DNA of 13,072 bases. Source: an uncultured archaeon (GTDB taxonomy: Archaea; Asgardarchaeota; Lokiarchaeia; Sigyniarchaeales; SOKP01). Under the pieces are notes generated by a model. It saw only the letters and a list, made by a program, of their open reading frames with translations. It ran no database searches and had not been told where the DNA came from. Positions 469-12,403 of the stretch are shown here, in pieces. Numbering within the stretch: the first letter of the stretch is position 1; every line of letters starts with the position of its first letter. The translations under genes were made by a program, and so were the position numbers. Where the stretch lies: contig CAZGJX010000107.1 in assembly GCA_964525635.1 (NCBI GenBank), forward strand, positions 1-13,072, read 5' to 3'.

Positions 469-3400
469 TTATTTATATAATATCTCTTGTTGTAATTGAT
501 GGAAAAATTCTAACAATATATTGAAATTCTCTCTAATTTTAGCTTCTAAATCAAGTCCTTCCATTTCTTCAAGCTTACTTAGGTTGAGTAGATATACTAA
601 AAAGTCTTTTGTGAATGAATTCCCTAAATTATCCAAAAAGAAGATCATCGCTTTTTCTACTTGTATATTAGTTATCTTATTTGGATCACCAGGATGAAAT
701 TCACAGTAAAGATTCATAAGAAGCTTCCTTAGAATATCTCTCTGGAGAATTAATGCTTGCTTCAAATCATCCTTTTTCATAGCACTATTGATCTCAGATA
801 AATCATAGAAATAATCTCTGTTTAAATGTTCAATCAACTTTTTTTTAAATTTTGCCTGATTAATTTTAATTACTTCTCTTGAGAATTCTATAGGAGCATT
901 TACTTTCTCTAATTCATAATCAATTCCAGATTCATTTTGAATTACAACAGGTGAGACATTTATTTTATCATCACCGCGAGAGTCAAAATAGTCTTTTAAA
1001 GAGACATCATATTGAGGTCCAATAGAATAGGAAGTACGGATTGATTGCGATCCACTTGCCTTACTCGGATGGCTCTCGACAAGGTACCTATACTTAATTA
1101 AGAGAGCATAGATCTTATCTCTTATTCTCTTTATCTTGCTTTTATTCCTTGAGAATTTTTGAGATGCTTTCGGATAGATTATCTTCAGTAATTCTTCTTT
1201 AATTTTGCTTTCATAGAGATTTCCTATAGTATCAATTTTTCCCAAGATTTGCAGAAATTTAATGATCTCATCTTGAAAGATTATATAATTTCCAAAATGA
1301 GATTGTAATAAAGATTTTTGTGCTATTTTTAGCAATATGCTTTCTTTTTCCCGTAAATTATATCCTTGTATCTCCATATGTTCAATAACATGGTTATAAC
1401 TTGGAATATCTATTTCCTTTATTTTTTTCCAATCAATTACCACCGGAAATGATTGATTGGTATCATATCGTTTAATAATTATTTCATTATCTTTTAGTCC
1501 AAAGAGATAATCAATTTGATATGAATCCTTTCTGGCCGCACTGTAATATCCAAGACCATGAAGCTCTTGCAAGTTCATCTGATTTTTTAAAATAGCTAAA
1601 TCTTTTTTATCTGTTGCTTTAAAGGTTATAATATTATTGAAGTAATTAAACGTATTGTGATGAAGAAATTTGATCTGATTTGAAGAGATGATCATTCCAA
1701 ATCCCTTGCTCATTAAAGGTTCGGTAAATTTTGATATTTTACTATAATTTGCATGCTTTTCTATATAATGATTATCAAAAACAATATCGGCATTAGGGAC
1801 AACACATATTTTTTCATAATAATCATCAGATTGCTTAATGTAATGAATAAATTTAGAGAGGATTGCAAAAGAAATGAATAATTTTTGCTCTAAATCATTT
1901 AAAATAGACAAATCGATGATTATCGTCTTTTCATCTGTTAAGAATTGGTGTGGCATTATATCTTCTTCATATATTTCTGCCTCATCTTGAAATATTAAAG
2001 TCTGATCAGAAAGTTCTGTAAATAATGTTCTAACTGAATCATAATGAGAATCATTCTTCCATTCAGAATCTCGATCCACTCCTAATGTGTTAACATCAAC
2101 ACCATACCCTTCCTTTATGGAATTTCTCAATGTATTCATTGCTTTATGCTCCTGTTTAAATGCCATTCCATATGCATCAATAATGAGATCCAAGTAGTCA
2201 GTATTTTTTTTATCATATAAAATATCAGCAGTTTCTAATTTTATGCGAAATGATTTACCGAGGCTGAAATAAAGGAGATCATTTTCATATTGACTATCTT
2301 GGAAATAGTGTAATAGTTTTGACCAATTACCTGTATAATCAAACACAATAGAAGGCATCTTCTTCATTATTAATTGGGAGACTATTTTCATGAGCAAATA
2401 TTCTCTATTTAGAAAAGTTCCATTTGTTATCAGTAAATTCTTCAATTGTTCATGAGAAAATCCTGCTGGAATCTCCTGTTCTAAAAATTCGGTGTTAATA
2501 GTATTACCAATAATTATATGATTATCAAGCTCAAGTGGAGAGATAAATTCAGCGGCAATCTTCGTCTCAACTCCCTTTTTAAATTCATTTGCTATTTCTA
2601 TTAAATTAGCAATAGTTTTTCCTTGAAGTAATAGATAATTAAAATGTGTGCCAGCCTTTCGGAAGAATTTATTTTTTAGGCTATTTCCTATAATTGCTGT
2701 TACCAAGTTGTTTTTCTTCAACTCAATTAAGTGATAATTTGTTAGGTTAGCTATGAAAATATTATAAAAATGAGCACATTGTAATGCCAATTTTTCTTCC
2801 ATTTGCTTGAGGCTCTCAATAGTTATTTTATTCAGGGAGAGATGCTCAGATATTGTATATAATAAGCATGTTCTCCATATACCGCCACGCATGATAATCC
2901 ATTGTTCTCTCTTGACATCCGTATTTCGTTGCAAAAGCTCTTTTATAGCATAGGTATTTAGTTTCTTAGAACCTTCTTTCATGAAGTTGAGAAAACTAAT
3001 GGGAGAGATAATCGCCGTATAGGTGAAGGGGATTTGTTGGCTTACCATAGATCGATAAAATTTATCTAAATTTGCGATAAATTTATTATCACTTCCATAA
3101 TATTGAGGAACATCGGCAAATTGTGCATTAAATGATTTTAATGCAAAGAGAGTTCTATTATTTGCATGAACAAATATGGAGTCGCTTACATTTCGCGAGA
3201 AATAAAATTTATACGACTGAAATGGATATATCACTTCTTTATGATCTTTAAAAAGAACGCCTTGGTATAGTAAATAGAGGGCTTCTCTCCAAAATAAGAC
3301 TAAAATTATAATAAAGCAGATTACATTTGCGTTAAGAATAATTATAAAATTAATTTTTAAGTTAAAAAATAAAAAGTCTAAGCAGACTATAATAATAATT

Positions 3401-5096: not shown

Positions 5097-5819
5097 TTAA
5101 ATCCCCCCTTCTCGTATAATTTGAGTCTTTACTTTTAATTCTTCATTTTTCTGCATCTTTTTAAATTGGTTTCGTATATCCTCCTCAGCAATGAATTTAT
5201 CAAAATCAAGATCTTCATTCTCTTTTGCTAAAAAGTCTTTAATAATCTTCTCGGAATCCTCATGATCAACTTCATATTTTTGAACTGTGTGGAAATATAG
5301 AGCTACATAAGGAAATACAAGGATAAATGAAATAAATTGTAAGTAATAACCAATATTGATAAAATTGAAATATATTATCCCTATATCTTCATCTGAAAGG
5401 GTGATTATAGGAAAATACAGACCATTTGAGATTAAGTAAAAAGCGGGTATGATAAATATATAAAATCCAATGAATAAAACAAACGTTAAAAGAACATATA
5501 CATACGGTCTTAAAGCGATATAATCTTTAGCGCTTATAACATCCTTAAAAAGAACAACAAACACCGAGCCAACTAATAAGACAATGAATATTATATGGAT
5601 TTCAATAGGAATCTCCAATTCGGGGGGCTTTAATAGATCATTATACCCTCTTTGATTATTTAATTGTGTTGTCCAGCTAAAAAAGAGGTTTAGATTCCAT
5701 GAGAGAACTAATTCCCCATCTTCAAAACCCTGATAACTATAATAGTCTACAAACAGAGAAAGAAAAGAAAGGCAGACTCCGATAAAAAAAGTTAATTTGA
5801 AAATTAGTTGTGCTTTCAT
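5097..5819 (-). CDS. Four-TM membrane protein with a charged C-terminal tail (~240 aa), first gene of the operon
   Basis: Four hydrophobic segments. ATG 5819 (MKAQ) is preferred over TTG 5840 because the TATA-containing motif at 5843-5858 ends 24 bp upstream of it, whereas TTG 5840 would lie only 3 bp from the motif. Confidence 0.85.
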   Translation of the reverse strand: MKAQLIFKLTFFIGVCLSFLSLFVDYYSYQGFEDGELVLSWNLNLFFSWTTQLNNQRGYNDLLKPPELEIPIEIHIIFIVLLVGSVFVVLFKDVISAKDYIALRPYVYVLLTFVLFIGFYIFIIPAFYLISNGLYFPIITLSDEDIGIIYFNFINIGYYLQFISFILVFPYVALYFHTVQKYEVDHEDSEKIIKDFLAKENEDLDFDKFIAEEDIRNQFKKMQKNEELKVKTQIIREGGI

Positions 5820-5842: not shown

Positions 5843-5858
5843 CTATTTAAAGAAAAAA
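5843..5858 (-). promoter_or_regulatory. Shared promoter motif copy 1: TTTTTTCTTTAAATAG (TATA box TTTAAATA with a T-rich element in the BRE position)
   Basis: Identical 16-mer also at 9589-9604 (-) and 9795-9810 (+); ends 24 bp before ATG 5819. Confidence 0.75.
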
Positions 5859-5862
5859 ATCT

Positions 5863-5981
5863 GGGTAGGTACAAATGTTAGTGATAAAAATGCATAAATT
5901 GATTTATTTTAGAATATTTCTCCTAAAATTATAATTTAATAAAAGAATATATTCTTCCATCACTGAATTTTGTACGCACCC
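5863..5981. mobile_element. MITE copy 1 (119 bp, non-autonomous, 23-bp imperfect terminal inverted repeats)
   Basis: Identical to 9672-9790. Left end GGGTAGGTACAAATGTTAGTGAT versus reverse-complemented right end GGGTGCGTACAAAATTCAGTGAT (18/23 match). No coding capacity. The 8-bp flanks AAAAATCT / AAAATTAG do not form a TSD. Confidence 0.9.
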
Positions 5982-6197
5982 AAAATTAGTTTTTTCATTC
6001 TATAGAAAAAGATGATATTGTAATTATAACATTTTAGACCAATTACTATTTATATCCCTTAAGGTCGTTTAATATAGATTTTGATTATAATCTAATCCAA
6101 TCTTCTCTTATTTTTTAACCTTAATATGATTGTGAATATAAAAGATTAAATATTAGTTCTCGGTTAATAATAAGTATATCATAAAATTCTGATTCTT

Positions 6198-7751
6198 ATG
6201 TTAGAATTAGGAAAAGTTAGAAACAAGTATATTGTGAAATTTTTTCTTATCTTGGGTGTCTTTTTCTTAACTGGATATTTTATACAACTAAGCTCATATT
6301 TTAATAGCAATCAATCGAATTTTCAGGAAAATGATACATTAATAGATGATACGTTAAAAACAAGTAATATGCCTATTTGGAGTACAGATTATGAGGGTTA
6401 TTTGACTGAATCAATAGCAATGTCTTCTGATGGAAATTACATAATAGTAGGTCAAACTGATCATTATGTCTATCTATATGAAAAATCAAGTTCCACACCT
6501 CTATGGGGCTATGAGACAGGTGAAGTCAGTGAAGTTGCAATCTCTTCTGATGGAAGTTATATTGCAGTAGCTAGTAGTGGGGGAATTTATTTATTTGATA
6601 AAACAAGTTCCACTCCTTTATGGAATAATAATACTCCTTCTTACCGAATTGATATATCTTCTGATGGGGCTTACATTGCAGTATTAGGAGGAGTTAGCGA
6701 TCAAGTATATCTATTTAATAAAGCAAGTCCCACACCATTGTGGAGTTATGATACGTCTTGGGGAACTTACCCAGAAACAATTTCTATATCCTCTAATGGT
6801 GATTATATAGTAGTAGGTGCTGAACCAACAGTTTATTTCTTTAGTAGGACAAGCTCAACTCCATTATGGATACAATCAATTGGAAATCTTATATGGGACA
6901 CCGATATTTCCTCAGATGGATATTATATTGCTGCAGCTTGTGGTGATGGGCTCTTTTTTTTTGAAAGAACAAGTTCCACTCCCTTATGGGAGTATGATAC
7001 TTATACTTCTATGGTATCTATCTCATCTGATGGAAATTACATTGTTACAGATGGTAATAGTGGACCTACTTTATTAGAAAGGACAAGTTCAACTCCTTTA
7101 TGGGAAACGGATCTTCATCCTCACTCAGTAGCAATATCCTCTAATGGGAATTATATCGTTGTTTGTTCAGGTCAAAAAGTCTATTATTATGTGAGATCAA
7201 GTTCCACTCCATTATGGATTTTTAATAATATGGGTGATGGTGTAGGAAATTTTTACGTATCAATTTCCTCAGATGGAAATGATATTGTTGCTGGAATGGG
7301 ATGGATATATTTCTTTAATCATGATGCAATTCAGATTACCAGTCCCACATTATCAGAAGTATGGCAGGCGGGTAATAGTTATGATATTATATGGACATGG
7401 TTAGGGAGTATAACCTCTGTGGATATCAAACTATATTTATGGAAATATAATTATGTTCAGGATATAGCTCTGGATATTAATAATGTTGGATCATTTTCAT
7501 GGGCAATTCCAAATGATTTAGATAGCGATAACCATTATATTATATGGATTATTGATTCATCTGGATCTGGTATTTATGATGTGAGCTATGATTTTGAAAT
7601 AGAGAATAATTCTGGAACAACTGGAACTACTGGGACTACTGGAACTACGGAATCTAATTCTGGAATTGCAGGATTTAATATATTAATACTTATCATTTCA
7701 ATTGGAAGTATTTCAATAATTATCATCAAAAAGAAATATTCAAAAATTTAA
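6198..7751 (+). CDS. Secreted/surface protein: N-terminal signal/TM, 8-bladed WD40/PQQ-like beta-propeller, Ig-like (Kre9/Ser-Thr-rich GPI-anchored-type) domain, Gly-Thr linker, C-terminal sorting/TM tail
   Basis: Eight ~40-aa repeats (SSTPLW...V/ISISSDGxYIxV...VYLF); IQITSP...WQAGNSYDIIWTW Ig-like start; (GTT)4 linker; IAGF + hydrophobic helix + KKK tail resembling PGF-CTERM/Loki-CTERM signals. Confidence 0.9.
   Translation: MLELGKVRNKYIVKFFLILGVFFLTGYFIQLSSYFNSNQSNFQENDTLIDDTLKTSNMPIWSTDYEGYLTESIAMSSDGNYIIVGQTDHYVYLYEKSSSTPLWGYETGEVSEVAISSDGSYIAVASSGGIYLFDKTSSTPLWNNNTPSYRIDISSDGAYIAVLGGVSDQVYLFNKASPTPLWSYDTSWGTYPETISISSNGDYIVVGAEPTVYFFSRTSSTPLWIQSIGNLIWDTDISSDGYYIAAACGDGLFFFERTSSTPLWEYDTYTSMVSISSDGNYIVTDGNSGPTLLERTSSTPLWETDLHPHSVAISSNGNYIVVCSGQKVYYYVRSSSTPLWIFNNMGDGVGNFYVSISSDGNDIVAGMGWIYFFNHDAIQITSPTLSEVWQAGNSYDIIWTWLGSITSVDIKLYLWKYNYVQDIALDINNVGSFSWAIPNDLDSDNHYIIWIIDSSGSGIYDVSYDFEIENNSGTTGTTGTTGTTESNSGIAGFNILILIISIGSISIIIIKKKYSKI
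7614..7649 (+). repeat. 9-bp tandem repeat (GGAACTACT-like x4) encoding the GTT linker
   Basis: gga aca act / gga act act / ggg act act / gga act acg; bracketed by TAATTCTGGAA at 7607-7617 and 7655-7665. Confidence 0.8.
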
Positions 7752-7785
7752 TTTTTTTTTCTTAATTTTAGTACCTAAAAAAAGC
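7752..7785. terminator. Putative bidirectional T-tract terminator between convergent genes
   Basis: T9 run immediately after the + strand stop at 7751, and an A run near 7777-7783 that is a T run for the - strand gene ending at 7788. Confidence 0.5.
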
Positions 7786-7787
7786 AT

Positions 7788-9563
7788 CTAATCTTCTAAA
7801 AAATCCATATATTTCTTTACCAAGTTATCTTTTTTAGATTTCTCAGAAATAGTTTCCTCAATTTGAACTTTTTGAATCTTATCTTTATAATCACTTTTAT
7901 CATCATTCTTAATATTTTTCTTTATAGCTTTTTCCTCCTTTAAGATAACTTCATTTAATGTATGAGTCTTTCCAAAGCATTCATAGAGAAATTGCTCCAT
8001 TTCTTCATTATTTAACTCCTGTGCTATAAGCTCTATATCAATCTCATCAAGATCTGCTTTTTTTTGATTTATAACCGATTTTTGAGAACTATCTAGATTA
8101 TCGAGCTCCCTCTTATAGTTAAGATAATAATACACAAGCAATATTGAATATGATAAAACAATACCCAACCCCAATCCAATTATAATATGAGTGAAATCAA
8201 CAAGATATGGATATATTAGGTACAATAATACTCCCAGACTAAGAAAAGGGATTGAATATCTCTGTAGTGTATTTATAAGATTACTCTTGATTGTCTCTTT
8301 TGAAATTTTTGGTTTCTTCCCGCTTTCATATTTTCTAATTAATCTATGCTCCTTTTCAGTAAAATCTACGAAGTTAAGTAAATCTCTTTTTGATATAAAA
8401 TGAATATTAGTTGTTTTTTGATAAGGGTAAGGGATGATTTTTTCAATACACCGAGGTTGTTGTTGGCATAAATAAATGGGAGAGATAAATATCTTATACT
8501 CAGTCAATTCAGAATGAAAGTAGAGATCTGTATTAGTCCTAAATTCCACCTGAAAATCATTATTTAGATATTTTTTTATAAACTTGAATAGAGAGCCGTT
8601 ATTATATAAATTATTGTAACTGTTCTTTTGAGTATCATTTAACAAATGGACTTCATGTTGTTTATAAGCTAAATCCTCTTGATCTTTCTCTTTACCTTCA
8701 ATTATTACATTACTTTCGGAAATAATGAGTGAATGGTTAAAATCACAGATCCTGATAGGAAATAGAAGTATAATAGTCTCATATTTATTTATTTTAATTA
8801 ACTTTATTGGAAGAATATCATATCCCGCAATATCTTTAATAGATTTAATAATATAATACCCATTTTGAGTAAGCTGTTGGCAAATCTCTACAAATTCTCT
8901 ATTGGAAATTTGTTTTCCTTGATTTATTTGAATATTACTATTATATGTCACATTTTCTATACTGCTTTCATTTGTATCTATTTCCTGTTGTTTTATTGAA
9001 TATTTATTATTACTTCCATTAAGTTTATTGACTTCTTTTGGTATTACAAATTCTCCTAAATCTTTAATAGTTGAGTTATTATTATTTTGAGATTTTTCAT
9101 TTTCTTCATTAAATTCAATATTTTTAGCCTCTCTTACATTTTTCATAATTTCTTTCGCTAAATCTACATATTTCTGAGCATTATTAATACTAATACCTTT
9201 TACTTCAGATAATTTATCAAGATCTGCATTAGCTAGATCCTTAATTGAACTATATCCCGCATCAAATAGTTTTTCTGCTATTGAACTTCCAATACCTTTT
9301 ATCTTAAGGAATTCTGAGGAATTAGGGTAAATTTGATTGTCTATATTCTGGATTTTTTCTATATCACTTAAAATTTTTTCAAATTCCTTGATATATATTG
9401 ATTTACTGAATTTTTTAGCAATTTTGAGACCTTTATTTGCCAAACTTATTGTTTGTTCATAATCAGAACTGTCAAGGGTTTGCTTTGTCATTTTTAGGCA
9501 AAAATCTAAATCCCATTCATCTTCAAGAATACTATTAGAGATACCTCCAATTACTTTTGTCAT
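7788..9563 (-). CDS. Membrane-anchored helix-hairpin-helix (HhH)2 DNA-binding protein (~591 aa) with a possible degenerate PD-(D/E)xK-like domain
   Basis: Tandem HhH FLKIKGIGSSIAEKLFDAGYSSIKDLANADLDKLSEVKGISINNAQKYV (~9150-9311), of RadA-N/HHH_5 type; N/E/K-rich linker; two TM helices at ~8120-8258. Start set at ATG 9563 (MTKV), 26 bp from the shared motif; the ORF-track extension to 9683 begins inside the MITE. Confidence 0.85.
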   Translation of the reverse strand: MTKVIGGISNSILEDEWDLDFCLKMTKQTLDSSDYEQTISLANKGLKIAKKFSKSIYIKEFEKILSDIEKIQNIDNQIYPNSSEFLKIKGIGSSIAEKLFDAGYSSIKDLANADLDKLSEVKGISINNAQKYVDLAKEIMKNVREAKNIEFNEENEKSQNNNNSTIKDLGEFVIPKEVNKLNGSNNKYSIKQQEIDTNESSIENVTYNSNIQINQGKQISNREFVEICQQLTQNGYYIIKSIKDIAGYDILPIKLIKINKYETIILLFPIRICDFNHSLIISESNVIIEGKEKDQEDLAYKQHEVHLLNDTQKNSYNNLYNNGSLFKFIKKYLNNDFQVEFRTNTDLYFHSELTEYKIFISPIYLCQQQPRCIEKIIPYPYQKTTNIHFISKRDLLNFVDFTEKEHRLIRKYESGKKPKISKETIKSNLINTLQRYSIPFLSLGVLLYLIYPYLVDFTHIIIGLGLGIVLSYSILLVYYYLNYKRELDNLDSSQKSVINQKKADLDEIDIELIAQELNNEEMEQFLYECFGKTHTLNEVILKEEKAIKKNIKNDDKSDYKDKIQKVQIEETISEKSKKDNLVKKYMDFLED

Positions 9564-9588
9564 AGTCGAACTATAATTTAATATGGAT

Positions 9589-9604
9589 CTATTTAAAGAA
9601 AAAA
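9589..9604 (-). promoter_or_regulatory. Shared promoter motif copy 2: TTTTTTCTTTAAATAG
   Basis: Plus strand ctatttaaagaaaaaa; ends 26 bp before ATG 9563. Confidence 0.75.
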
Positions 9605-9671
9605 TCCAGAGTAATGATATCTTTTTACTGTAAAAATCATGACTTCTAAATGAAAAATTCAATCTCTTTTT

Positions 9672-9790
9672 GGGTAGGTACAAATGTTAGTGATAAAAAT
9701 GCATAAATTGATTTATTTTAGAATATTTCTCCTAAAATTATAATTTAATAAAAGAATATATTCTTCCATCACTGAATTTTGTACGCACCC
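9672..9790. mobile_element. MITE copy 2 (119 bp) with a perfect 8-bp target-site duplication CTCTTTTT
   Basis: Identical to 5863-5981 and in the same orientation; CTCTTTTT at 9664-9671 and 9791-9798. Confidence 0.93.
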
Positions 9791-9794
9791 CTCT

Positions 9795-9810
9795 TTTTTT
9801 CTTTAAATAG
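9795..9810 (+). promoter_or_regulatory. Shared promoter motif copy 3: TTTTTTCTTTAAATAG, upstream of the helicase
   Basis: Identical 16-mer; ends 24 bp before ATG 9834. Confidence 0.75.
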
Positions 9811-9833
9811 AGAGCGATGATAGATTATTTTAT

Positions 9834-9860
9834 ATGATAATAACGAAAGTGATCGAATAA
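9834..9860 (+). other. Candidate leaderless 8-codon uORF (MIITKVIE*) whose TAA overlaps an in-frame ATA of the helicase
   Basis: The ATG has the same 24-bp spacing from the motif as the operon start; ATAA overlap at 9857-9860; SD-like GTGATC at 9849-9854. Confidence 0.35.
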
Positions 9861-12403
9861 TTACAATATACGATTTTTCCGAGCAAAAGAATGGAGAAAA
9901 AATAGAGGAGCATAAAGACAAGGAAATTTTTAAACTTATAACAGATGAGCGTATTCTACGAGTTTTATTTGAATCCAAAATTTTTGAACTTAGAGATATT
10001 CAAAAAGAAGCTATAATAAAGGGATTATTTTTTAGGACTTCTTTTTTAGTATGCGCTCCTTCAGGAAGTGGAAAAACTTTAATTGGTGAGATTTCTGCTG
10101 TTCATAATACTTTTCATGGATTTGGTAAAGCAATCTATCTTGTTCCATTTAAAGCACTCGCAACAGAGAAATATATCCATTTGAAAAAGAGTTATTCCAG
10201 ATTTGGGCTAAATATTGAATTATCAATTGGGGATTTTGATATAGATGATTCTAAACTAAAAAAAGCAGATATTATTATCTCGACCTATGAGAAAATGGAT
10301 TCTCTAATTAGAAATTTTTATGATAAGAAATGGATTTTCAAAATATCAACGATTATTATTGATGAAATTCATATCATTGGAGAAGAATCTAGAGGACCAA
10401 GGCTAGAATCTCTAATAGTGAGGATAAATAAATTTTTACATAATCCTCAAATTATTGGACTTTCAGCAACTATTGCAAATCCTGAGTTCTTTAATTCTTG
10501 GCTAAATTCTCTGGGAAATAAAACTATACTTATAAAATCAGATTTACGACCAGTTCCCTTACATTATCATATTGAAGTTAGTCAAAATAAGGATTCTACT
10601 ATTAAGCGCATTGTTAATAAAGTTCTTAAGAAAAAAGGGCAGGTTTTAATTTTCTTAAATAGAAGAAGAGCTACGTTGGATACAGCTATATTAATTAAAA
10701 ATATTGTAAAAAATCTTTTAGAGGAGAATGAAAAAAAAAAGATATGGAGAATTGAAAAGAGACTAAAGAAAATAAGAGGAGGGCACCATGATTTACAGAA
10801 AATAATAAAAAATGGTGTCGCATTCCATCATGCAGGATTATTACCGAAAGAAAGAAAACTTATAGAAGATTATTATAGGAAAAGAGTTATTAAAGTCATT
10901 TGTTGCACGACCACTCTTTCAGCGGGAGTGAATACACCCGCAAGATTAGTTATATTAAAAGATTTTAAGAAATTTACAACCACCGCAGAAAACATAAAGA
11001 ATTATAGTGGATTTCATGAAAATGGAGATGGATTTTCCTATTTTAAACCATTTTCTTCAAACGAGGTGTTTCAAATGCTTGGAAGAGCAGGACGACCTGG
11101 ACTTGATTCAATTGGTCATGGGATTATATTAGTAAATAATTTTGAAGAAAAATCTTGGATTGAAGACCATTATTTTACTTGCGATTATGAGCATCAACTC
11201 TTGCTCCCTAAATATGGGAATCTCGGTTCAGGTTTAAACACCATTAATACCCTTAAAGAGCAAGTCTTACTTCGAGTATATGAAGAAGTGAATATAACAT
11301 TTTTACAATTAAAGGAGTTTTTTGAGAAGACGTATTTTTGGTTTATTATGAAAAATCAAATGAAACAAATTCAAATACCAATTGATCAACTTCTAATGAT
11401 AAAAGAAATTAGCCCGTCAAATATTTTGAAATTACATTCTAACTCACACAGAATTGAGCAAATTAAAAGGAAACAATCGGAAATTAAAATAACAAAACTA
11501 AATTCAGGGAACATATCGGGATATGTCAAAACTGATTTTGGGGTGTTTTTCACTGAATTTGATATAGATAATGGGATTAAATGCTCTTGTGGGTTTGAAA
11601 ATGGTCTATCAGATAACTTTGCTGAGCAGAAATTTACATTTGAATTTTGCGACCATATTACAGAGTTCTTGATATATTTACTCGAATTTTCTGATAAAAA
11701 CATTAAAAAACATATCAATAATATTATTCCAAAGTCTATAAAGAATCAATACATTCTCAGTTATTTATTTGAAAAGGGACTTTTATTATCAAATCAAGAG
11801 AATTTGATAAAATGCTCTCAATTTGGGAAACTTATCATTCGACTCTATTTATATCCCGCTTCAGGAGTACTCATCCGTAATAAATTAGAAAAAAAAGAGA
11901 TAACTTCTTACAAAGATTTAATAAAAGGAGCATATGAAATTCTGATTGCTGAAAATCGAGTAAAAAATCATAAAATGTTAGAACCTATTTTAGAATGGAC
12001 TGATGAGGAACCTATCGATAGCATTTTAGAACGACATAATGTTATGGCAGGAGACTTATATTCTCTTAAAGACAATATTGAGCGAATAATAACGTTTATC
12101 GGGATTATTGCTATTCACTTAAGTTCTTCAGGGCAAGATATTCGGGATAATATGATTTTGATTGGTGAAATGTCAGAAACATTAAGGATACGTATTCATT
12201 ATGGAATTAGAGAAGAGTTATTTGATCTTGTTCTGAGATTAGAAAATGTTGCACGTATGCGAGCAAGAGTTCTTTATAATGCAGGATACCATACTGCTTC
12301 TCAAATTACGAATATAAATCCCTATTTATTACATAGAAAGACAGGATTAGGAGTAAATTTATGTAAGAAGATTGTTAAATCTTTAAATATTAAATCTAAA
12401 TAA
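9857..12403 (+). CDS. Hel308/Ski2-like SF2 (DExH) helicase with a SWIM Zn-finger insertion and C-terminal HhH domain; start codon uncertain (frame open from 9824)
   Basis: In frame upstream of the ORF-track start are the Q-motif LRDIQKEAI, Walker A APSGSGKT (~10055-10078) and motif Ia VPFKALATEK. Downstream: DEIH, GLSAT, GVAFHHAGL, TTTLSAGVNTPA, QMLGRAGRPG, CSC-x19-CDH and RMRARVLYNAGY (Hel308 RAR motif). Confidence 0.92.
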   Translation: MITIYDFSEQKNGEKIEEHKDKEIFKLITDERILRVLFESKIFELRDIQKEAIIKGLFFRTSFLVCAPSGSGKTLIGEISAVHNTFHGFGKAIYLVPFKALATEKYIHLKKSYSRFGLNIELSIGDFDIDDSKLKKADIIISTYEKMDSLIRNFYDKKWIFKISTIIIDEIHIIGEESRGPRLESLIVRINKFLHNPQIIGLSATIANPEFFNSWLNSLGNKTILIKSDLRPVPLHYHIEVSQNKDSTIKRIVNKVLKKKGQVLIFLNRRRATLDTAILIKNIVKNLLEENEKKKIWRIEKRLKKIRGGHHDLQKIIKNGVAFHHAGLLPKERKLIEDYYRKRVIKVICCTTTLSAGVNTPARLVILKDFKKFTTTAENIKNYSGFHENGDGFSYFKPFSSNEVFQMLGRAGRPGLDSIGHGIILVNNFEEKSWIEDHYFTCDYEHQLLLPKYGNLGSGLNTINTLKEQVLLRVYEEVNITFLQLKEFFEKTYFWFIMKNQMKQIQIPIDQLLMIKEISPSNILKLHSNSHRIEQIKRKQSEIKITKLNSGNISGYVKTDFGVFFTEFDIDNGIKCSCGFENGLSDNFAEQKFTFEFCDHITEFLIYLLEFSDKNIKKHINNIIPKSIKNQYILSYLFEKGLLLSNQENLIKCSQFGKLIIRLYLYPASGVLIRNKLEKKEITSYKDLIKGAYEILIAENRVKNHKMLEPILEWTDEEPIDSILERHNVMAGDLYSLKDNIERIITFIGIIAIHLSSSGQDIRDNMILIGEMSETLRIRIHYGIREELFDLVLRLENVARMRARVLYNAGYHTASQITNINPYLLHRKTGLGVNLCKKIVKSLNIKSK

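Follow-up and report, generated by a model that had tools for sequence, protein, structure and literature searches.

A transposon family of Lokiarchaeia with insertions at a fixed position upstream of TATA-box promoters

Introduction

Promoter-anchored integration is well studied for the retroelements of yeast and amoebae, and it is known for a few bacterial Mutator-like elements. The yeast element Ty3, a long terminal repeat retroelement, is guided to Pol III genes by protein contacts with TFIIIB. Here, we describe a family of DNA transposons in Lokiarchaeia, starting from a contig of an uncultured archaeon (CAZGJX010000107.1 in assembly GCA_964525635.1; assembly size 4.45 Mb, 26.8% G+C). This complete contig of 13,072 bp (C107) is referred to as the window; it carries two copies of a 119-bp miniature inverted-repeat transposable element (MITE), each of them next to a promoter. 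The closest published analogue of the family is the group of prokaryotic Mutator-like elements TnGBS/ISLre2/ISKra4 (Brochet 2009, Guerillot 2014), whose insertions precede the -35 box of sigma-A promoters by 15-17 bp. Transposases of this type (p-MULT 3/4) have a specificity motif between their domains N1 and N2. They normally do so in one orientation, and in both when their ends are near-symmetric; the dissymmetry of the ends sets the orientation (PMC3942029).

Like TnGBS and ISLre2, the DDE elements from Lokiarchaeia are located at a fixed distance upstream of a promoter, and the full insertion sequence (IS) is oriented; the MITE inserts both ways, as do the near-symmetric members of the bacterial group. 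A Mutator-like affinity is also suggested by the closest structural match of the transposase (IS256/Mutator-like). In contrast to the bacterial elements, which recognize the -35/-10 architecture of sigma-A promoters, the target consists of an archaeal T-tract and a TATA box at an offset of 11 bp, the hosts are Asgard archaea, and the family includes MITEs as well as single-gene cassettes. With Ty3 the family shares precise integration beside a TBP-type promoter, the gene-sparing 'safe haven', and the reuse of sites; unlike Ty3, the element is a DNA transposon, the T-tract requirement points to a reading of DNA, and a protein tether is hypothetical. The mobile insertion cassettes and MITEs of bacteria and archaea are generally transposase-less, bounded by IS ends, equipped with or without one passenger gene, and moved in trans. 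The cassettes and MITEs described here correspond to this definition in lacking a transposase, in having IS ends and in containing a passenger gene or none, but the cassettes differ in sharing a promoter-anchored target and in piling up in tandem at one promoter.

We found no published description of promoter-anchored integration at archaeal TATA-box promoters. Promoter targeting is unmentioned in a recent survey of archaeal IS (PMC13343696), and aloposons and other described mobile elements of Asgard archaea, which we considered as candidates, integrate at tRNA genes and are unrelated (PMC8813620). The family is an archaeal counterpart of the promoter-seeking transposons of bacteria and yeast.

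Results and discussion

Two MITE copies beside promoters in the window

A self-comparison of the window reveals that positions 5862-5981 and 9671-9790 are identical over 120 nt (100%, zero mismatches). The MITE proper comprises 119 bp, begins with GGG and ends with CCC, and is located at 5863-5981 (copy 1) and 9672-9790 (copy 2), in both cases on the forward strand. Its ends pair at 18 of 23 positions, forming terminal inverted repeats of about 23 nt, and the target duplication has a length of 8 bp. As is expected of a MITE, the repeat is short, noncoding and multicopy: its 119 bp are free of open reading frames (ORFs), and the genome contains 12 copies with 90-100% identity.

Outward from the left end of copy 1 the flank reads AGATTTTT-TTC-TTTAAATA, and outward from the right end of copy 2 it reads CTCTTTTT-TTC-TTTAAATA. 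The initial annotation had described an identical offset with opposite MITE ends turned toward the promoter, and the flank readings of both copies bear this out. At copy 1, the 8-mer on the TATA side is AAAAATCT (5855-5862), which becomes AGATTTTT when read toward the TATA box; it is followed on the reverse strand by the 3-nt spacer TTC (5852-5854) and, according to the motif and the flank alignment, by the TATA box TTTAAATA of the first promoter (5844-5851). Copy 2 is flanked on the left (9664-9671) and on the right (9791-9798) by the target duplication CTCTTTTT; the spacer TTC (9799-9801) and the TATA box TTTAAATA (9802-9809) of a helicase gene follow on the forward strand (9799-9809).

The promoters share a 17-nt motif with three sites in the window: 5843-5859 (+), 9794-9810 (-) and, with one mismatch, 9589-9605 (+). 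Only 0.10 matches are expected, and none of 200 shuffled sequences reaches three. The TATA motif lies outside the MITE because the perfect duplication CTCTTTTT sits between copy 2 and its TATA box; together with the motif at 9589-9605, which has no adjoining MITE, this confirms the earlier proposal that the motif is not part of the element.

An alternative interpretation assigns the promoter motif to the element as an outward-facing promoter, or assumes that the motif-bearing copies bound a composite or invertible 4-kb segment (5843-9810). The inverted repeat of 43 nt (5843-5885 and 9768-9810; 81% identity), which the initial annotation had offered, as an alternative reading, for the border of a segment of about 4 kb, is real, and the same 19 nt precede window copy 1 and one MITE copy on another contig (C44). 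As the border of a unit, this repeat does not hold: it consists on each side of the promoter motif, the spacer and a MITE end, and is a by-product of their combination. Furthermore, the element ends directly adjoin perfect duplications, which separate the element from the TATA box, and the motif can be to the left or to the right of the MITE and is also found free of it (at 9589-9605 and at 49 other intergenic sites). The outer flanks of 5863-9790, AAAAATCT and CTCTTTTT, have no duplication in common; therefore, the segment did not insert as a unit. Among all readings considered here, we regard this one as the least credible.

Offset and polarity of the insertions

A BLAST search of the assembly with the element yielded the 12 MITE copies on 9 contigs, eleven of them with 98-100% identity and one with 90%. 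Perfect 8-bp duplications are present at eight of the 12 copies. In 11 of the 12, an octamer TTT[AT][AT]AT[AG] begins exactly 11 nt from one element end, and the flank is arranged as 8-bp duplication, 3 nt and TTTAAATA-like octamer; the twelfth copy, on contig C2, has AATATATA at this offset. Over all intergenic positions of the genome, such an octamer is found at offset 11 with a background frequency of 0.6%, and the probability of at least 11 hits in 12 copies is about 5e-24. The initial annotation had conceded that the two equal distances would be a coincidence if further copies inserted in generic T-rich DNA; the alignment of the remaining copies reveals instead a fixed relation to the TATA box and favours targeting. 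The end that faces the TATA box is the right one in seven copies and the left one in five. In three genomes of the same genus, the DNA at the corresponding sites is too diverged for a comparison with empty sites, and the sole helicase orthologue is cut by a contig end.

The same rule applies to autonomous copies, which were collected from species-representative Lokiarchaeia genomes and from metagenomes, with duplicate flanks removed. At the transposase-5' end, the TATA octamer is located at an offset of exactly 11 in 43 out of 51 distinct flanks and in none of the 51 at the neighbouring offsets 9, 10, 12 or 13; the remaining eight flanks mostly have near-TATA strings at the same position. The most common spacer between duplication and TATA box is TTC (20 of 43). 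By contrast, none of 48 flanks of the IS 3' end has the octamer at offset 11. Thus, the IS shows strict polarity (43:0, P = 2e-13), which distinguishes it from the MITE (7:5; Fisher P = 2e-4). Clean-ended cassettes, which have the same ends and lack a transposase, likewise show the duplication and a TATA box at offset 11. Taken together, MITEs, cargo cassettes and full IS all land 11 bp upstream of the TATA box with single-base precision, and targeted integration is well supported. The proposal that the transposase targets a promoter class is sustained by the MITE copies (11/12) and by the 5' flanks of the IS (43/51).

One might object that random insertion in AT-rich DNA was followed by selection, which retained only the harmless copies just upstream of core promoters. 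As 74% of the genome is coding, many insertions would indeed be purged, and the observed position of the insertions spares the promoter. Selection, however, cannot yield one exact offset with no TATA box at 9, 10, 12 or 13, nor can it yield the strict polarity of the IS, and it does not explain why the duplicated 8-mer is T-rich in nearly every case. The MITE copies with 98-100% identity are, moreover, recent and little filtered. We consider it very improbable that selection accounts for the pattern.

The polarity of the IS is not explained by a need for the TATA box of the host, since the transposase has its own promoter: a conserved internal promoter, consisting of an A-rich stretch similar to a B recognition element (BRE) and of a TATA-like octamer, is located 32 nt before the transposase start codon. 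The idea that the IS borrows the targeted TATA box for the expression of its transposase was rejected for this reason. A possible clue is provided by the element tips. Both tips of the MITE begin with GGGT, while most 5'-end tips of the IS differ from the 3'-end tips at positions 2-5. By analogy with the bacterial promoter-targeting elements (PMC3942029), the asymmetry between unlike element ends may set the orientation.

Autonomous elements and their transposase

Among 154 genomes from the order that includes the studied archaeon, 56 contain the consensus of the element ends, frequently at the very end of a contig; the reversed pattern, used as a control, gave almost no matches. Complete IS of approximately 1,635 bp, with an ORF of 470-472 amino acids and the same ends as the MITE, occur in several genera. 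Two of them (L080 and L081) possess perfect duplications, followed by TTC and TTTAAAT(G/A). The autonomous IS with matching terminal inverted repeats, whose existence the initial annotation had presupposed, was found: as the 1.63-kb IS in relatives and as an intron-split copy in this genome, with the same 11-nt rule.

The resident copy is located at C73:11821-15758 (locus L109) and represents the sole copy of the transposase gene that was matched by a protein query in this genome. A complete group II intron, which has the same strand as the gene, splits it after residue 192; the intron is recognizable by its domain V/VI (Rfam, 68.9 bits) and by an ORF of 490 amino acids with reverse-transcriptase and maturase domains. 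The transposase-proximal (5') end of the resident copy is followed by GCACTTTT-TTA-TTTAAATA. This copy was found by the protein search but missed by a regular expression for the ends and by a footprint search for duplication, GG...CC and TATA box, because its ends deviate and its duplication is imperfect. Presumably, the resident copy moves the MITE in trans after the group II intron has been spliced from the transposase gene.

IS256/Mutator-like transposases combine an RNase H-like catalytic core, with a D, D, E triad, and an insertion domain made up of helices only, and they are marked by a CxxH motif after the second aspartate of the triad. In 20 diverse transposases of the present family, D190, D249 and E373 as well as C271-x-x-H274 are invariant. 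The AlphaFold model displays an RNase H-like order of strands and helices with a helical insert at 272-361, and a Foldseek search with this model ranks ISCth4 of the IS256 family first (E = 6.6e-9), followed by the P element and Hermes. The 470-amino-acid transposase is thus predicted to be a DDE enzyme with an IS256/Mutator-like fold.

Sequence profiles do not show this relationship. No match to IS256/Transposase_mut is obtained in Pfam or NCBIfam; the profiles of IS6, IS66, ISL3 and ISH6 as well as DUF6431 match only weakly and below threshold, and the transposase remains below the cut-off of each curated IS-family profile that it matched (IS6, IS66, ISL3, ISH6, IS1). The score for the IS66 profile NF033517, for instance, is 29.8-37 bits compared to a cut-off of 180, and PF03050 stays below its gathering score in all matching members. 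A search with a sequence profile against PDB sequences retrieved zinc-ribbon noise only. With the families IS66 (ISBst12 group), IS6, ISL3 and ISH6 the elements share an 8-bp duplication, a single DDE transposase and an N-terminal zinc ribbon, but their ends differ, the profile scores are far under the cut-offs, and no TATA-anchored offset is reported for any of these families. ISH6 duplicates an AT-rich 8-mer (PMC3942029). Public data contain more than 150 sequence clusters of the transposase, and almost all of the records label the protein 'hypothetical protein', which is of practical relevance to annotation. An ORF of 436 amino acids with a weak match to the TFIIB zinc ribbon, next to an element end in L056, was dropped as a candidate: it is not part of the element, which faces the 3' end of the ORF.

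The targeted promoter class

In the sequence logo of 33 insertions, flank positions 4-9 are T, position 10 is C or A, and positions 11-18 read TTTAAATA. Farther downstream, an A at flank position 40, i.e. 29 nt after the start of the TATA box, is present at 26 of the 33 sites and, in the more extensive set of IS flanks, at 28 of 43. Several sites have a long ORF that begins 2-5 nt past this A, for example at 5819 and, behind an unoccupied motif, at 9563; an ORF start just past the A at +29 fits leaderless transcripts and a promoter that points away from the element. Generic gene-proximal TTTAAATA sites do not share these features: only 8% of 215 have a T-tract, and the A at +29 remains at the background level of 42%. 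Hence, the family targets a specific promoter class, defined by T-tract, TATA box and A at +29, and not any TATA-like string.

The strict motif TTTTT[TC]N-TTTAAATA has 75 occurrences in this genome. It marks a genuine class of promoters: 55 of the occurrences are intergenic (73%), and six of these intergenic sites are occupied. The unoccupied intergenic sites have an A at +29 in 57% of cases (P = 0.06 compared to occupied sites). A more general promoter model was not obtained, as neither the distance of TTTAAATA to start codons nor the regions upstream of 51 tRNA genes revealed a sharp position or a consensus. For organisms that are nearly uncultivable and lack maps of transcription start sites, the offset rule nevertheless offers a marker of a promoter class that depends on sequence only.

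Recognition of the target

Our preferred model, to which we assign a probability of roughly 0.6, is that the repeats are MITEs of a DDE family specific to Lokiarchaeia that integrates at a fixed position of T-tract and TATA box, with a transposase that reads the DNA directly. The family comprises three forms with common ends of about 23 nt and an 8-bp duplication, namely the 1.63-kb IS, the 119-bp MITEs and the cassettes. A cut-and-paste type of integration would take place at one position of promoters built from T-tract, C/A and TTTAAATA; the staggered cuts would enclose positions -11 to -4, counted from the first T of the TATA box, leaving the order of element end, 8-bp duplication, 3 nt and TATA box after insertion. 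Since the duplication restores the 11 bp that precede the TATA box, the core promoter survives and only DNA farther upstream is displaced, which explains why the element is tolerated. The earlier suggestion that the insertions spare the gene and its TATA box at the expense of upstream DNA is in line with this: duplication plus 3 nt keep the 11 bp intact. The N-terminal region, with its zinc ribbon and helix-turn-helix, probably reads the T-tract and the TATA box directly.

What is more challenging is to distinguish such a reading from recognition of a bound factor. In a factor-tethered model, the transposase recognizes either the DNA bend caused by TBP or the TATA-bound protein, with TFB present or absent, and integrates at a fixed distance upstream. 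Single-base precision relative to the TATA box, combined with tolerance of several TATA variants, would be in agreement with this model, as would the fact that the recognition element lies wholly on one side of the integration site, like in known tethered systems. Occupied sites also have the initiator-like A at +29, several with a leaderless ATG 2-5 nt farther on. Yet this A is similarly frequent at the unoccupied motif sites; it is enriched there too, so it does not discriminate between targeting guided by factors and targeting guided by sequence. Generic TTTAAATA sites without a T-tract are essentially unused, even though TBP should bind them. The T-tract is needed by the element and is not a general feature of promoters, which favours a reading of DNA beyond the TATA box.

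In archaeal promoters, the BRE region just upstream of the TATA box is in contact with TFB. Strand transfer at -4/-3 would fall within this contact region and would be occluded by a complete TBP-TFB complex, so that tethering to the full complex is sterically unlikely; moreover, profile searches found no TBP- or TFB-like domain in the transposase. From these sequence comparisons, we lean toward direct reading of DNA over recognition of bound TBP/TFB, and consider factor tethering a rather unlikely, if serious, competitor.

A little more doubtful still is a variant in which the transposase docks on TBP-bent TATA DNA and takes the place that TFB usually has on the upstream side. If it applied, Ty3-type tethering to the basal transcription machinery would have a DNA-transposon equivalent in those archaea that are closest to eukaryotes. 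The insertions would then report TBP occupancy in vivo in a natural way, and the stacked gene cassettes would constitute a promoter-anchored platform for gene capture. In any case, the family is a simple system in which the reading of TBP-bound DNA by a transposase could be studied biochemically.

Several observations weigh against the preferred model. All evidence for insertion is inferred from fixed copies, and copy 1 of the window has no matching duplication, with AAAAATCT on the left and AAAATTAG (5982-5989) on the right. On the other strand, the far-side 8-mer reads CTAATTTT, which is consistent with the target consensus of another insertion; the mismatch could be explained by recombination between two directly oriented MITEs at different promoters, with deletion of the intervening DNA. 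The A at +29 of occupied sites marks working promoters, which fits recognition of a bound factor equally well, and the tolerated TATA variants (TTTATATA, TTTAAAAA, TTTATAAG and others) resemble the tolerance of TBP. A few full-length IS have GGGT at both tips and are polar all the same, so that tip asymmetry does not account for the orientation completely. The quality of the transposase model is only moderate (mean pLDDT 61). Finally, the MITE cannot be derived from the resident C73 copy by a simple deletion, and its mobilizer is assumed.

Cassettes and stacked insertions

The transposase-less cassettes have a length of 0.6-3.3 kb, the same ends as the IS, and one passenger gene each. Passengers encode a SAM methyltransferase, an FMN reductase, an enoyl-CoA hydratase, a PNPOx-like protein and an HD-CE/ATPase protein of 1,002 amino acids; further ones are several ORFs without a Pfam match. 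The methyltransferase cassette is 99% identical in two species, where it is found at two different promoters with different duplications; therefore, it has moved.

Because the duplication re-creates the target, elements stack at one promoter. In an array on contig C44 (L001, G000:C44:8000-17000, 1766-3277), a MITE, a 638-bp cassette with an ORF of 131 amino acids and unknown function, and another cassette of 741 bp, whose ORF is PNPOx-like, are lined up head to tail beside one TATA box. The 8-mer AAAAATCT, the same as on the TATA side of copy 1 in the window, recurs between and after the elements; the MITE and the first cassette are joined by TTTTTT instead of AAAAATCT. At another locus (L061), a cassette is placed between an older MITE and the TATA box, and one 8-mer is again common to the array. 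The cassettes demonstrate a route by which single genes can be shuttled and piled up before host promoters.

A solitary end of a related element with a methyltransferase-like passenger (C196:3170-3230) abuts a T-tract and a TTTAAAAA box; the gene downstream of this box has paralogues on C130 and C6.

Genes of the window and further repeats

The gene of the first promoter (5097-5819, reverse strand) encodes a protein of 240 amino acids with no Pfam match. Its ATG is located 32 nt after the start of the TATA box, at flank position 43, and therefore its mRNA is probably leaderless. The unoccupied promoter belongs to a gene with an HhH domain (7788-9563, reverse strand; ATG at 9563): the target site TGGATTTT-TTC-TTTAAATA spans 9590-9608 on the reverse strand, with the TATA box at 9590-9597, the spacer at 9598-9600 and, at 9601-9608, the 8-mer that an insertion would duplicate.

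The genes of the contig include FEN1 and a Hel308-type helicase, a content that points to the Loki-type Asgard archaea. Within 9824-10181, the helicase reading frame with the Walker A motif (approximately 10055-10100) extends upstream of the first listed start codon (TTG, 10181), and a short out-of-frame ATG ORF starts at 9834, at the distance expected from the helicase TATA box. Between both MITE copies (6198-7751), a protein of 517 amino acids is encoded, which contains about seven beta-propeller repeats of 38-40 residues (WD40/PQQ-like) and additionally a Kre9/KNH-like Ig domain.

Two species of another genus share a relative of the MITE with 72% identity at one and the same site, which adjoins a TATA box and follows a tRNA gene (L005, G010:C27; L025, G033:C355); this shared site indicates an old, inherited insertion. 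In the genome under study, contig C54 contains about 28 tRNA genes packed together (ARAGORN), many only a few tens of bases apart, which could be a mobile-element tRNA array or a binning artefact. Another repeat family of about 320 bp has at least six copies with 95-99% identity in this genome (C17:34950-35300, C34:27416-27765, C86:1-326, C167:5656-5983, C177:4288-4638 and C230:1465-1806), and at C125:4768-8361 a unit of 1.8 kb is tandemly duplicated with 94% identity.

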